The notes under the pieces are model-generated. The model ran no database searches and was not told where the DNA came from. It was given only the letters and a program-made list of their open reading frames with translations. The position numbers and the translations under genes are program-made. From Giardia intestinalis (lineage: Eukaryota), in NCBI GenBank assembly GCA_000002435.2, contig AACB03000028.1: a DNA stretch of 15,856 bases, one strand, 5' to 3'. Of the stretch, positions 2,042 through 3,895 are shown piece by piece (positions within the stretch are counted from its first letter, which is position 1; each line of letters starts with the position of its first letter).

Positions 2042-3895
2042 TGGAGTGTGATATGTACAAAGGCCAGTAATGGACTGTGCACTGCTTGTAAGACAGATAA
2101 CAAGTACATATTCCAGAACAGGGCAGACAAGGTGACCCCTGGTAGTGAGTGCATCCTGTGCTCTGATATCAAGGGAGCGAATGGATATACGGGAGTGGCC
2201 AACTGTCTCAAGTGTACGGCACCAGGGAATGCAGGACCTGCCACGTGTAATACCTGTCAAGAGGGGTACTTCCTAAACAACAAGCTTTGTAAGCCATGCG
2301 AGGGGAACTGTGCCACCTGTGAGACATCGGCGACCCAGTGCACATCGTGTCCAGAGGGGAAGTACCTCAATGGGAATCAATGTACTGATAGCTGTGGTAA
2401 TGATAAGTATGCTGACCCGGAGTCGGGAACATGCAAGGCATGTAGTACGATACACGCAGAGTGCACGGCATGCTCCTTCGACAAGGCCACGGGGAAGCCA
2501 AAGTGCACTAACTGCGGGACCAATAAGACCCCCAGGACGGCCCTCGACGGGACATCGACCTGCGTGGCGAAGACGCTTGAAGGATGCGAGGGCGCTGACG
2601 AGGCCTTATTTATGAAGGAGGACAAAACGTGTGCTCTTTGTAGTGATGTGACAGATTCAACTCTTGGTAACGAAGGAAAGGCCAACTGCAAGACATGTAC
2701 GAAAACAGGAAGTGACAATCCAACCTGCTCAGCCTGTCTCGATGGATACTTCTTTGATAGTGGTACTAGTACATGTACAGACAAGTGTGGTGATAACTGT
2801 GCCACATGCTCTGTTGCTGGTGATCCAAATAAGTGTGAAACCTGCAAGACTGGATACTTCTTAGTAACTACTACAGATCAACAGGGGAAGAAGTGCGTCC
2901 CATGCGATAGCGTAGACGATAAGGGTCGCGAAGGCTGCAGTGTCTGCTCTAACAACGGTGCTTTCAAGTGCACTGACTGTAAGCCTAACTATCGCAAGGA
3001 GGGCAGTACTGGCTCTGTCACATGCACCAAGATCTGTGAAGATGATACTGCCTGTGGAGGAACTTCTGGTGCCTGCGATGCAATAGTGATTGATGATAAG
3101 GGTGTAGAGCATCATTATTGCTCATACTGTGGAGAAGCTAATACGTATCCTATAGATGGGAAGTGTAATAGTGCTAAAGCAAATAATCAATGTGATCAAG
3201 GTGTATGTACACAATGCACTAACAACTACTTCTTGTATATGGGAGGTTGTTACAAGGTTGATACAGTACCTGGACAACATATGTGCAAGACAGCAGCCAA
3301 CGGTGTCTGTACTGCTGTTAATGCCAACAATAGGTACTTCATAGTCCCTGGGGCAACCAATCAGAATCAGTCTGTATTGGCATGTAGCAACTCCCTTGGC
3401 ACACTAGTAGGCACTGGTGATACCTCTAAGGCATATGTGGGGGTAGATGGCTGTTCGGCATGTACGGCCCCAGCAGCTCCATCTGAGACTGGTATGACTG
3501 CTGCTGTGTGTACAGCGTGTACCAACAACAACAAGCCCAACCTGGCTGGGAGCGGGTGCTTCGCATGTACCGTTGACGGATGCTCGCACTGTGGAGCAGG
3601 CGATAAGTGCGAGGCCTGTACCAGTAAAGACCAGAGGCCGAACACAGACGGAACGAAGTGCATCGCCTGCAATATCGACGGGTGCGTCAGGTGCAGCGAG
3701 GAGAACAAGTGCGGCCAGTGTGGGGACGACTACAGGCTGGAGGGTGAGGCGTGCGTGTCCACCAAGCCCAGCGGGGGCAACAGAAGCGGCCTCAGTACTG
3801 GTGCCATAGCAGGGATCTCCGTCGCTGTCATCGCTGTCGTGGGGGGCCTCGTGGGCTTCCTCTGCTGGTGGTTCGTGTGCAGGGGGAAGGCGTGA
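2042..3895 (+). CDS. VSP cassette U2. It is an intact 617-codon ORF with one GGCY motif, ending in the transmembrane helix plus CRGKA. It has no ATG or signal peptide; the ORF opens directly after the TAG at 2039..2041.
   Basis: The ORF track gives 2048..3895, but its M is a GTG codon. The ORF extends to 2042 and the first in-frame ATG is about 180 codons in. The protein is cysteine-rich with CXXC pairs and ends ...[39 protein letters not shown]. Confidence 0.85.
   Translation, partial: WSVICTKASNGLCTACKTDNKYIFQNRADKVTPGSECILCSDIKGANGYTGVANCLKCTAPGNAGPATCNTCQEGYFLNNKLCKPCEGNCATCETSATQCTSCPEGKYLNGNQCTDSCGNDKYADPESGTCKACSTIHAECTACSFDKATGKPKCTNCGTNKTPRTALDGTSTCVAKTLEGCEGADEALFMKEDKTCALCSDVTDSTLGNEGKANCKTCTKTGSDNPTCSACLDGYFFDSGTSTCTDKCGDNCATCSVAGDPNKCETCKTGYFLVTTTDQQGKKCVPCDSVDDKGREGCSVCSNNGAFKCTDCKPNYRKEGSTGSVTCTKICEDDTACGGTSGACDAIVIDDKGVEHHYCSYCGEANTYPIDGKCNSAKANNQCDQGVCTQCTNNYFLYMGGCYKVDTVPGQHMCKTAANGVCTAVNANNRYFIVPGATNQNQSVLACSNSLGTLVGTGDTSKAYVGVDGCSACTAPAAPSETGMTAAVCTACTNNNKPNLAGSGCFACTVDGCSHCGAGDKCEACTSKDQRPNTDGTKCIACNIDGCVRCSEENKCGQCGDDYRLEGEACVSTKPSGGNRSGLSTGAIAGISVAVIAVVGGLVGFLCWWFVCRGKA
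2408..3895 (+). repeat. Copy 1 of a 1488-bp near-identical block A, the 3' three-quarters of a VSP. Copies 2 and 3 are at 9342..10829 and 14344..15829.
   Basis: Identity starts at TATGCTGACCCGGAGTCGGG and runs through the CRGKA stop. Only a few SNPs separate the copies, for example CCAAAG versus CCGAAG. Confidence 0.8.
3800..3892 (+). other. Representative transmembrane helix plus invariant CRGKA cytoplasmic tail of a VSP (U2). The same module ends every unit.
   Basis: It is a hydrophobic stretch of about 26 residues, [25 protein letters not shown], followed by CRGKA and TGA. An NRSG sequon lies just upstream. Confidence 0.7.

Follow-up and report, generated by a model that had tools for sequence, protein, structure and literature searches.

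A probable linear array of promoter-less, 5'-truncated VSP pseudogene cassettes in Giardia lamblia, with near-identical tracts of likely recent recombinational origin

Giardia trophozoites carry a coat of VSPs and switch it to evade immunity, in a manner considered epigenetic or post-transcriptional. Arrays of the kind analyzed here contain about 200 pseudo-VSPs. Published accounts define such an array as at least two VSP units that follow one another head-to-tail on the same strand, separated by very short intergenic regions (more than three units in the definition applied to Giardia muris). For the linear vsp arrays of G. lamblia, the text of Adam et al. (2010, BMC Genomics 11:424, PMC2996952) gives intergenic regions averaging 60 bp and downstream members devoid of Inr, and it reports "long regions of 100% identity" together with GENECONV-positive recombination, from which a cassette hypothesis is developed. 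In psiVSP linear arrays as described there and by Xu et al. (2020, Sci Data 7:38), the array is headed by a complete VSP that has non-coding sequence upstream and an Inr, and the downstream members have no Inr, no proper start codon and no signal peptide. The psiVSPs of G. muris have been reported to be silent (Xu et al. 2020, Microb Genom 6:mgen000402).

The DNA analyzed in this study (the window) is a 15,856-nt stretch of contig AACB03000028.1 from Giardia intestinalis (GenBank assembly GCA_000002435.2). Judged by homology and unit architecture, it is probably a "linear array" in which promoter-less VSP pseudogene cassettes with truncated 5' ends stand head-to-tail, and its near-identical tracts would have arisen by young recombination; this probability applies to the two parts of the reading jointly. 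The lineage is that of G. lamblia WB or a very close assemblage-A isolate. Seven units and part of an eighth make up the array, with the + strand as the coding strand throughout; the window starts inside the partial unit, U0, so that the head of the array lies outside it, and ends 27 nt past U7. The Pfam VSP profile PF03302 scored 280 bits in U6, 130 in U2, 125 in U3 and 80 in the middle of U4 (gathering score cut-off, 31.4), and the top protein match was identical at 425 of 427 amino acids to XP_001705784.1, a VSP of G. lamblia ATCC 50803. The open units U2, U3 and U6 contain 28, 28 and 43 CXXC motifs, respectively, with a cysteine content of 12.3 to 12.6% and one GGCY motif each. A transmembrane segment followed by [VI]CRGKA and the stop codon closes six of the eight units (at 1990, 3895, 5782, 10829, 13946 and 15829), and the CRGKA tail is frameshifted in U0 and U4, each by a 1-bp loss.

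The units are separated by a spacer that is kept at all eight junctions (after 69, 1990, 3895, 5782, 8906, 10829, 13946 and 15829), with about 51 nt from the stop to the point at which the ORF resumes with WSEICT. The spacer at 3895..3946 (+ strand) is representative: it opens with ACTTGGGTAGTGAATGC, starting at the A of the TGA stop, and continues with GTGATAG repeats, which supply TGA and TAG stops, so that the spacers are full of stop codons. With one mismatch to the consensus, ACTTGGGTAGTGAATGC is the VSP-specific extended poly(A) signal located just after the stop, i.e., ACUUAGRUAGURAAYRY in the preprint of Rodriguez-Walker et al. (2022), and it is present at 7 of the 8 junctions (0.01 expected). 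The cassette body has thus been retained in the form of a CXXC-rich ectodomain, a transmembrane segment, the CRGKA tail and the VSP-specific poly(A) signal.

What is missing is the beginning of the gene. U2 aligns with the complete VSP P0003 from residue 103 through the C-terminus only, and approximately the first 102 codons, including the start codon, Inr and signal peptide, are absent from each unit. An ATG is absent from the 5' end of every unit, where the ORFs resume at WSEICT (residue 103 of P0003), and the window contains no match to the Inr (YAATGTT), the consensus PyAatgTT being required for a functional, complete VSP. Having neither a signal peptide nor an ATG within an Inr, the units classify as pseudo-VSPs and not as complete VSPs, and without start codon, promoter element and signal peptide they would be unable to make a surface protein by themselves. 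The GTG and TTG "starts" of a bacterial-code ORF list were rejected as genes, since Giardia uses ATG as its start codon and VSP homology accounts for the + strand ORFs; numerous long ORFs on the minus strand were also rejected, being antisense to VSP bodies. Scans of the window for Rfam families, tRNAs and tandem repeats returned nothing except a 20-nt spacer repeat.

The window is therefore best placed as an instance of the class of linear/psiVSP arrays known from G. lamblia WB, which are of the same lineage and likewise arranged head-to-tail (Adam et al. 2010; Xu et al. 2020, Sci Data; Rodriguez-Walker et al. 2022). Spacers are short in both (about 51 nt full of stops in the window, against a published mean of 60 bp), the downstream members lack Inr, proper ATG and signal peptide while keeping CRGKA and the extended poly(A) signal, and long 100%-identity stretches are accompanied by recombination with statistical support, with no categorical difference from the arrays as published. 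The psiVSP arrays of G. muris (Microb Genom 6:mgen000402) are likewise tandem VSP pseudogenes without signal peptides, but they belong to another species, have a GCRGK tail and are almost exclusively subtelomeric, whereas the G. intestinalis arrays are not reported as mainly telomeric in the published text. For this particular array, we know of no description, in the main text of the Giardia array papers, of the A/B/C tract map, the reuse of the TATGCTGAC/YADP junction, the 5-kb repeat that fits one unequal crossover or the four-part mosaic U3 presented below.

The individual units differ in length and integrity. U0 (1..69, + strand, as are all the following) is a 3' end only, with transmembrane segment and CRGKA tail, in which the loss of one G from a GGGGG run gives CRGRRDL; the stretch 1-110 matches the U4 tail at 8838-8949, the same 1-bp loss being present in both. 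U1 (70..1990) is a GC-rich pseudo-VSP cassette with at least five reading-frame changes, identical at 83 of 86 amino acids to the complete VSP P0007 (214-471) and, at its 3' end (1541-1987), at 148 of 149 to the complete VSP P0004. U2 (1991..3895) is a pseudo-VSP cassette with a 617-codon open frame extending from the spacer to the CRGKA stop, without ATG or signal peptide. U4 (5783..8906) is a 3.1-kb cassette with three frameshifts (about 6470, 8159 and 8892), the latter two being single-G losses relative to U6. U5 (8907..10829) has a distinct 5' leader with one -1 frameshift near 9228 and then the repeated block described next (block A). U6 (10830..13946), also of 3.1 kb, is frame-disrupted over its first ~200 nt and then open for 973 codons. 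U7 (13947..15829) is a copy of the whole U2 with small deletions in the leader and two further 1-bp deletions in block A, which break the frame before CRGKA.

A sequence-only reading of this DNA had proposed that a 1.49-kb block ends three otherwise different units, its copies differing by a few SNPs, and both the copies and their near-identity were confirmed by pairwise comparison. Block A begins at TATGCTGAC (YADP) and occupies 2408..3895 in U2, 9342..10829 in U5 and 14344..15829 in U7, always on the + strand. The U2 and U5 copies differ by 3 substitutions in 1,488 nt, all of them synonymous, with no indels, and those of U2 and U7 by 6 substitutions and two one-base deletions. SNPs that tell the copies apart include those at 2500, 3721, 3823 and 14361-14372. 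A fourth, slightly different copy exists as the independent gene model XP_001705784.1. Per-block identity between U2 and U5 is 65% in the leader (286/441) and 99.8% in the block (1485/1488; Fisher p = 4e-105), the jump falling exactly at TATGCTGAC, and the near-identity then runs past the stop and through the spacer, up to 3969/10904. In a GENECONV-like check, the 788 consecutive concordant polymorphic sites shared by U2 and U5 were reached in none of 2,000 Sawyer-type permutations, and 0/2000 was also the outcome for each of the other pairs, U2-U7, U5-U7, U3-U4, U4-U6 and U2-U3.

These data uphold the proposal that the block reflects recent recombinational copying and not old duplication: the boundaries are sharp, divergence is about 0.2% in block A versus about 35 to 40% in the U5 leader, and the U2/U5 differences are synonymous only. 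The uniform divergence gradient along the units that was to be expected otherwise is not what the window displays, the boundaries being step-like instead. VSP 3' ends are conserved family-wide, as they would be if the units had duplicated long ago and selection had since been purifying in the 3' part and diversifying in the 5' part. Yet protein-level selection cannot freeze synonymous sites, and the 3 changes in 1,488 nt are all synonymous; the adjoining leader is about 35% diverged, with the change occurring within a few bases and no gradient; and units without start codons or signal peptides are not under protein-level selection. The probability of such a history appears negligible, and selection as the cause of the identical block is effectively refuted by the step-like edge and the near-zero synonymous divergence.

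The leaders, on the other hand, did not bear out the notion of three otherwise different units. The U7 leader (13947-14343) is the U2 leader (1991-2407) with deletions, 85% identical with gaps counted and 93% without, carrying 17 deletions of one to five bases relative to U2, especially in 14070-14335, and no small insertions. Only the U5 leader is truly different, with 65% identity to that of U2 and 58% to that of U7, in place of the 70 to 80% similarity previously ascribed to the 5' parts. With U2 and U7 being one and the same unit over their full length, the leaders fall into two types only, and the simplest description is accordingly one unit in three copies, the U5 copy having a replaced 5' patch of ~300-420 nt, and not three units with overwritten 3' ends. 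The divergent patch in U5 (8923..9341, + strand) has near-identity on both sides, another tract (C) upstream and block A downstream, the pattern typically left by a conversion patch or a double exchange.

Besides block A, the window contains at least two further near-identical tracts. Tract B consists of 726 nt without a single difference between 3578..4303 and 5465..6190 (both + strand), and it runs from the last 318 nt of one unit through the stop and spacer to about 408 nt into the 5' end of the next (in the second copy, U3 tail, spacer and U4 leader). By crossing into the 5' end of the next unit, it renders the U3 and U4 leaders identical. The first copy has a patchy left side (3333-3577) and its right end at the YADP motif (4325-4335). 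Tract C, of 1.58 kb, lies at 7341..8922 and at 12380..13963 (both + strand), with no substitutions and only two 1-bp G-run length differences between the copies; its left edge is sharp, with 22 substitutions in 7238-7340. The second copy forms the 3' half of U6, the 5' half of which is unique, so that U6 looks chimeric. Tract C and block A together make up a 5-kb higher-order repeat, in which 7341-9042 plus 9342-10857 recur at 12380-14079 plus 14344-15856 with one ~5.0-kb period (offsets, 5037-5039 and 4999-5002), the U5 patch being the sole interruption.

U3 (3896..5782, + strand), an open cassette of 611 codons, is a four-part mosaic. Its first segment (3947-4306) matches U4 at 119 of 120 amino acids, the second (4367-4726) matches P0020 at 120 of 120, the third (4727-5266) matches P0003/P0013 at about 98% with a GC3 of 0.74-0.80, and the fourth (5267-5779) matches the tail of block A; the step in GC3 from 0.44-0.56 to 0.74-0.80 coincides with a segment switch. 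At the protein level, segments of U1 and U3 share 96 to 100% identity with VSPs that bear a signal peptide (P0003, P0004 and P0007). Embedded segments of this type, identical to VSPs outside the window, emerged from sliding-window analysis and are missed by a whole-HSP tblastn filter. The 9-nt motif TATGCTGAC recurs at the left edge of block A (2408, 9342 and 14344), at the right edge of tract B (4325 and 6212) and at the U3/P0020 switch.

The earlier suggestion of a 3'-biased exchange stands in part. Every large tract includes the conserved 3' end of a unit, with 5' endpoints that vary (1.49 kb in A, 1.58 kb in C, 0.32-0.56 kb in the U3 tail), as would be expected of pure 3'-anchored gene conversion, in which a single donor would have replaced, non-reciprocally, the 3' three-quarters of three originally different units, each replacement setting out from the conserved 3' end and breaking off at a variable 5' endpoint. 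The decayed-looking leader of U7 beside a clean block A would fit an old unit with a recently refreshed 3' part, and the patchy identity at 3333-3577 resembles heteroduplex repair. However, U2 and U7 have their leader in common, leaving two unit types and not three, and tract B goes ~410-440 nt into the 5' end of the next unit, an exchange not confined to the 3' part. Moreover, the near-identity of U5 and U7 is found on the upstream side of the leader too, in tract C and the spacer, the odd element being a short internal patch, and the deletion-only, half-homopolymer pattern of the U7 leader is more like sequence error than age. We thus regard pure 3'-anchored conversion as unlikely.

More consistent with the tract map is homologous recombination between misaligned array members, in which unequal crossover and conversion patches would have generated the very young tracts, with junctions in short family-conserved sequences, namely, TATGCTGAC (YADP) and the conserved 3' end plus spacer. 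Both processes may have left their signs, the U5 patch flanked by identity favoring conversion and the 5-kb periodic repeat favoring unequal crossover. The history that we infer as most economical has four steps, competing histories needing similar event counts within one 15.9-kb window. An unequal crossover between U4 and an ancestral U6 would have created the 5-kb higher-order repeat, its products being a chimeric U6, in which tract C is joined to a unique 5' half, and behind it U7, as the second copy of the unit with block A. A conversion patch of ~300-420 nt would then have given either U5 or U7 a different leader, and a further copying event would connect U2 and U7. Other exchanges would account for tract B and the mosaic U3, with one segment matching an intact signal-peptide VSP elsewhere.

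Near-identical VSP repeats are also where an assembler might have made the three copies, or their joins to the leaders, by chimeric joining, by duplicating haplotypes of the tetraploid genome or through a poorly polished consensus. Linear arrays sit in short contigs and break assemblies according to Adam et al. (2010, PMC2996952), and unassembled contigs hold only VSP pseudogenes in the account of Rodriguez-Walker et al. (2022). The deletion-biased differences (U7 leader, G-run losses in U4, U1) indicate locally poor sequence, the frame changes of U1 lie inside stretches of 100% amino acid identity, and no identical gene model was found in public assemblies. Against such an artifact, each of the copies is marked by substitutions of its own and, to one side at least, by a flank that sets it apart; U0 and U4 have both lost a G from the run in the CRGKA codons and U6 has not, despite the identical U4/U6 context, which argues against systematic error; block A has its fourth copy in an independent gene model; and the same architecture with 100%-identity tracts has been confirmed in the literature by directed sequencing and a PacBio assembly. 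An assembly origin of the copies or joins is, in our view, quite unlikely. At a finer scale, the near-identical tract copies differ by 6 indels versus 9 substitutions, and U7 has in total 19 deletions, 9 of them in homopolymer runs, and no small insertions. This excess of 1-bp deletions between near-identical copies suggests imperfect sequence, such that the frameshifts may be sequence errors and part of the fine structure, in principle even some joins, could be technical. Real pseudogene decay of the U7 leader was considered as well, the deletion-only pattern arguing for sequence error instead.

Array type and segmental exchange having already been described (Adam et al. 2010; Xu et al. 2020), the finding is real and not novel. 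The window offers a base-resolved example of young, modular exchange, with 0 to 3 substitutions per 1.5 kb, a 9-nt motif reused at junctions, and one cassette that joins segments matching another array, an intact VSP and its own neighbors. Its value lies in a worked example and testable predictions, the published picture remaining unchanged. It also calls for caution in annotation, as bacterial-style ORF calls or first-ATG models yield spurious truncated "VSP" proteins from arrays, and in assembly, as near-identical repeats combined with indel-type errors yield unreliable array assemblies.

Beyond Giardia, Trypanosoma brucei has large silent, often defective VSG arrays, and its mosaic VSGs are assembled by segmental gene conversion with junctions in short homologous stretches. 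The window resembles that system in being an array of defective, presumably silent antigen genes with segment-built mosaics and short-homology junctions. The VSG and VSP protein families are unrelated, however, and in T. brucei switching is driven by demonstrated transfer into a dedicated expression site, whereas we know of no array-to-expressed-VSP transfer in Giardia. Tandem, promoter-less, 5'-truncated cassettes with conserved flanks that anchor recombination are also found in Borrelia (vlsE/vls), Neisseria (pilE/pilS) and Anaplasma (msp2), and the units of the window are alike in all these respects, their conserved flanks being able to anchor recombination. These systems differ in that programmed unidirectional conversion into one expression locus is demonstrated there and in that the hosts are bacterial, not eukaryotic.

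Pseudo-VSP arrays may hold material for new variants or may simply be leftovers. The likely role of the present array is that of a silent reservoir of sequence whose segments are exchanged with other VSP genes, as has also been proposed in the literature. It may conceivably, if improbably, be an active donor and acceptor in ongoing mitotic segmental conversion with intact, expressible VSPs, with TATGCTGAC (YADP) and the 3' end plus spacer as preferred junctions; the near-zero tract divergence and the segments in common with signal-peptide-bearing VSPs are compatible with such activity. If this were the case, Giardia, like T. brucei, would diversify its expressed antigens through mosaics made from silent cassettes, and would do so alongside epigenetic or RNAi-type switching.

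The long plus-strand open reading frames (ORFs) of the window match the Giardia variant-specific surface protein (VSP) family, Pfam PF03302, at 80 to 280 bits (cutoff, 31 bits), each with 28 to 43 CXXC motifs, approximately 12% cysteine, and one GGCY. The best database match is XP_001705784.1, a VSP from G. lamblia ATCC 50803 (425/427 residues identical), and many further segments are 96 to 100% identical to WB proteins, which places the window in G. lamblia WB or a very close assemblage-A isolate. The ORFs form a head-to-tail array of seven units plus the tail of an eighth (U0), all on the plus strand, i.e., U1 (70-1990), U2 (1991-3895), U3 (3896-5782), U4 (5783-8906), U5 (8907-10829), U6 (10830-13946), and U7 (13947-15829), the window ending 27 nt beyond U7. 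CRGKA-stop, preceded by V or I, ends units at 1990, 3895, 5782, 10829, 13946, and 15829. In U0 (52-69) and U4 (8889-8906), this tail is frameshifted to CRGRRDL by the loss of one G from the GGGGG of the CRGKA codons; U6 keeps GGGGG.

Neither a 5′ ATG nor a signal peptide was found at the start of any unit in the window, and the Inr consensus PyAatgTT has 0 occurrences across its whole length. The alignment of U2 with P0003, a signal-peptide-bearing complete VSP, starts at residue 103 and is continuous to CRGKA. Together with the missing starts, this identifies the units as 5′-truncated pseudo-VSP cassettes. Apart from the missing 5′ end, U2 and U3 are open; U5 has one frameshift, U4 has three, the first 200 nt of U6 contain two or three, U1 has at least five, and U7 has many. 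GTG and TTG starts in the ORF list were rejected as a product of the tool’s bacterial code. The same list contains long minus-strand ORFs of up to 366 aa (e.g., 1355-2260, 3404-4069, 5291-5956, and 10338-11438), antisense to VSP coding sequence and recurring unit by unit, which were attributed to composition and codon bias and not taken for genes.

The junctions between units are conserved at all eight positions, with ACTTGGGTAGTGAATGC directly after the unit’s stop codon. The VSP-specific extended poly(A) signal, reported as ACUUAGRUAGURAAYRY (Rodriguez-Walker et al. 2022), is present with one mismatch at 7/8 junctions (0.01 matches expected). GTGATAG repeats after the signal supply TGA and TAG stops, and roughly 51 nt past the stop codon of the unit, the reading frame opens again at WSEICT. 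At several junctions (spacers after 1990, 3895, and 5782, e.g., 3896-3946), the downstream and upstream ORFs are in phase, the spacer then comprising 17 codons with six stops (LG-stop-stop-MLYNV-stop-stop-RVIV-stop-stop). The repeats put TGA and TAG into different frames and vary in number, the spacer being 12 nt longer after U4, where TRF calls a 20-nt repeat (8929-8971), and 9 nt longer after U6. The spacer ATG (e.g., AGTGAATGCTGTAC at 3908-3910) gives only MLYNV-stop in the window. In other arrays, the 2007 WB models P0006, P0020, and P0030 start with MLYSDSDS at the homologous spacer, and P0014 starts there with a different N terminus, MIVLCGVLCSVGDSDS. The ATG of the MLYSDSDS start overlaps the preceding unit’s poly(A) signal, and the GTGATAG repeats are read as SDSDS; the annotated MLYSDSDS starts are probably artifacts of first-ATG gene calling.

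Over half of the WB vsp genes are reported to lie in “linear arrays” with a mean intergenic distance of 60 bp, where none of the downstream members described has an Inr and members can share “long regions of 100% identity” (Adam et al. 2010, PMC2996952). Rodriguez-Walker et al. (2022) cover arrays of VSP pseudogenes (pVSPs or psiVSPs), note that pVSPs carry the extended poly(A) signal, and present the idea of a reservoir. All features that define psiVSP linear arrays and are open to testing here were found in the window, whereas the signal peptide and Inr-ATG of a complete VSP are missing from it, as expected for psiVSP arrays. Arrays of this kind are already known, and the genome is well studied.

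Repeat search, self-BLAST, and MAFFT alignments all placed the 1.49-kb repeat of the sequence-only reading, block A, on the plus strand at 2408-3895 in U2, 9342-10829 in U5, and 14344-15829 in U7, as that reading had it. The U2 and U5 copies differ at 3 of 1,488 nt (2500, 3721, and 3823), all synonymous, with no indels; the U7 copy has six substitutions relative to each of the others (five private to U7, one shared with the other copy) and two one-base deletions relative to both. Between U2 and U5, there is an abrupt step at the left edge of block A, identity rising from 286/441 (65%) in the leader, the 5′ part of the unit, to 1485/1488 in the block (Fisher p = 4e-105). In a Sawyer-type test on the 1,020 ungapped polymorphic columns in the alignment of all seven units, U2 and U5 had 788 concordant sites in one run, matched by 0 of 2,000 permutations, and the similarity is far above chance. 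Block A is not bounded by the stop codon; the near-identity of U2 and U5 extends through the spacer to 3969 and 10904. XP_001705784.1 is a fourth copy, its only difference, in the region of 3385-3392, being ENP for SNS. ENP is the variant present in U3 (5272-5279), and the protein is thus a micro-mosaic in which block A is combined with the tail of U3 as a short U3-like patch. Since its annotated neighbor, XP_001705783.1, is absent from the window, the fourth copy sits in another array or contig.

The three units had also been credited with distinct leaders, 70 to 80% similar. This holds for the distinctness of U5 only, its leader being 65% identical to that of U2 and 58% to that of U7; U2 (1991-2407) and U7 (13947-14343) have one common leader, with 85% identity counting gaps and 93% without them. 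The differences are mostly deletions in U7, which over its whole length has undergone 19 such events relative to U2 but has gained no small insertions. Of these, 17 fall inside about 305 nt and 9 are within homopolymer runs, the sites being in the leader at 14070-14335 plus 14435, 15682, and 15829/30, with the adjoining 1.4 kb almost clean. This distribution resembles deletion-biased consensus error more than neutral decay, the alternative being an old leader beside a recently converted block.

Block A is one tract among several in a mosaic array. Tract B (3578-4303 = 5465-6190, plus strand; 0 differences in 726 nt) runs from the last 318 nt of a unit across the stop and spacer into about 408 nt of the following leader, which is why the 5′ ends of U3 and U4 are identical; left of the tract (3333-3577), identity becomes patchy, substitution clusters alternating with identical runs. 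Tract C (7341-8922 = 12380-13963, plus strand) is shared by U4 and U6 over 1.58 kb with 0 substitutions and only two length differences, single-G losses in the CRGKA run and at 8159, and has a sharp left edge preceded by 22 substitutions in 103 nt. At a higher order, 7341-9042 plus 9342-10857 recur at 12380-14079 plus 14344-15856 with a period of about 5.0 kb, broken only by a divergent patch in U5 (8923-9341). Junctions are reused. The three block A copies all have their left edge (2408, 9342, and 14344) at TATGCTGAC, which encodes YADP and is also found where tract B ends on the right (4325 and 6212) and at a partner switch in U3.

U3 itself comprises four plus-strand segments, each with 98 to 100% protein identity to a different partner: 3947-4306 matches U4; 4367-4726, the array-type model P0020 from elsewhere; 4727-5266, P0003 and P0013; and 5267-5779, block A. 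A GC3 step from 0.44-0.56 to 0.74-0.80 coincides with the third segment. Over 4664-5068, 131/135 aa are identical to P0013, annotated as a “High cysteine membrane protein Group 1” and with the tail YRGRK, not CRGKA, which suggests that segment sharing reaches beyond bona fide VSPs into the related HCMP/CRMP family. U1 matches two complete VSPs, P0004 (148/149 aa at 1541-1987 and 57/57 aa at 1094-1264) and P0007 (83/86 aa, 97%, at 214-471); its GC content, 58 to 62%, is markedly above that of most of the array. The U0 tail and spacer (1-110) match those of U4 (8838-8949), shared frameshift included, which hints that a still larger repeat, about 8.8 kb, lies upstream of the window.

Assemblies are known to break at VSP arrays, and assembly error may contribute to the joins. 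Near-identical copies of block A and tracts B and C differ by six indels versus nine substitutions, and the U1 frame changes fall within stretches whose protein-level identity is 100%. The excess of one-base deletions points to locally imperfect sequence, so the pseudogene calls are unreliable insofar as they rest on frameshifts. A pure artifact, however, is at odds with the private substitutions and distinct flanks of each copy, with a G-run loss common to U0 and U4 and absent from U6 in an identical context, with a fourth block A copy that is an independent gene model, and with prior publication of the same architecture.

The tracts are very young, step-edged, and statistically supported, lie between paralogues, and have their junctions in short conserved sequences. 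Such a pattern is the signature of homologous recombination and not of an old duplication under constraint, because constraint cannot keep synonymous sites identical and would not act on units that lack a start codon. The recombination originally proposed was right in essence, and the observation is real, if partly misdescribed. The approximately 5-kb periodicity would fit a single unequal crossover of U4 with an ancestral U6, yielding U4, U5, a chimeric U6 (its own 5′ half plus the 3′ half of U4, tract C), and then a second block A unit, U7; this predicts that the next unit starts with a copy of 10830-12379. The U5 patch of about 300 to 420 nt, with near-identity on both sides, is as would be expected of a conversion patch or double exchange, and further events would link U2-U7 and produce tract B and the U3 mosaic. 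The array may also have arisen by conversion only, a history needing about as many events as the crossover.

By analogy, the window is comparable to the silent VSG arrays of T. brucei and to the silent-cassette systems of bacteria; in those systems, the defining step is transfer into an expressed gene. By their predicted structure, the Giardia cassettes could not make a surface protein. They would plausibly constitute a silent sequence reservoir, a reading consistent with the segments that they have in common with intact VSPs.
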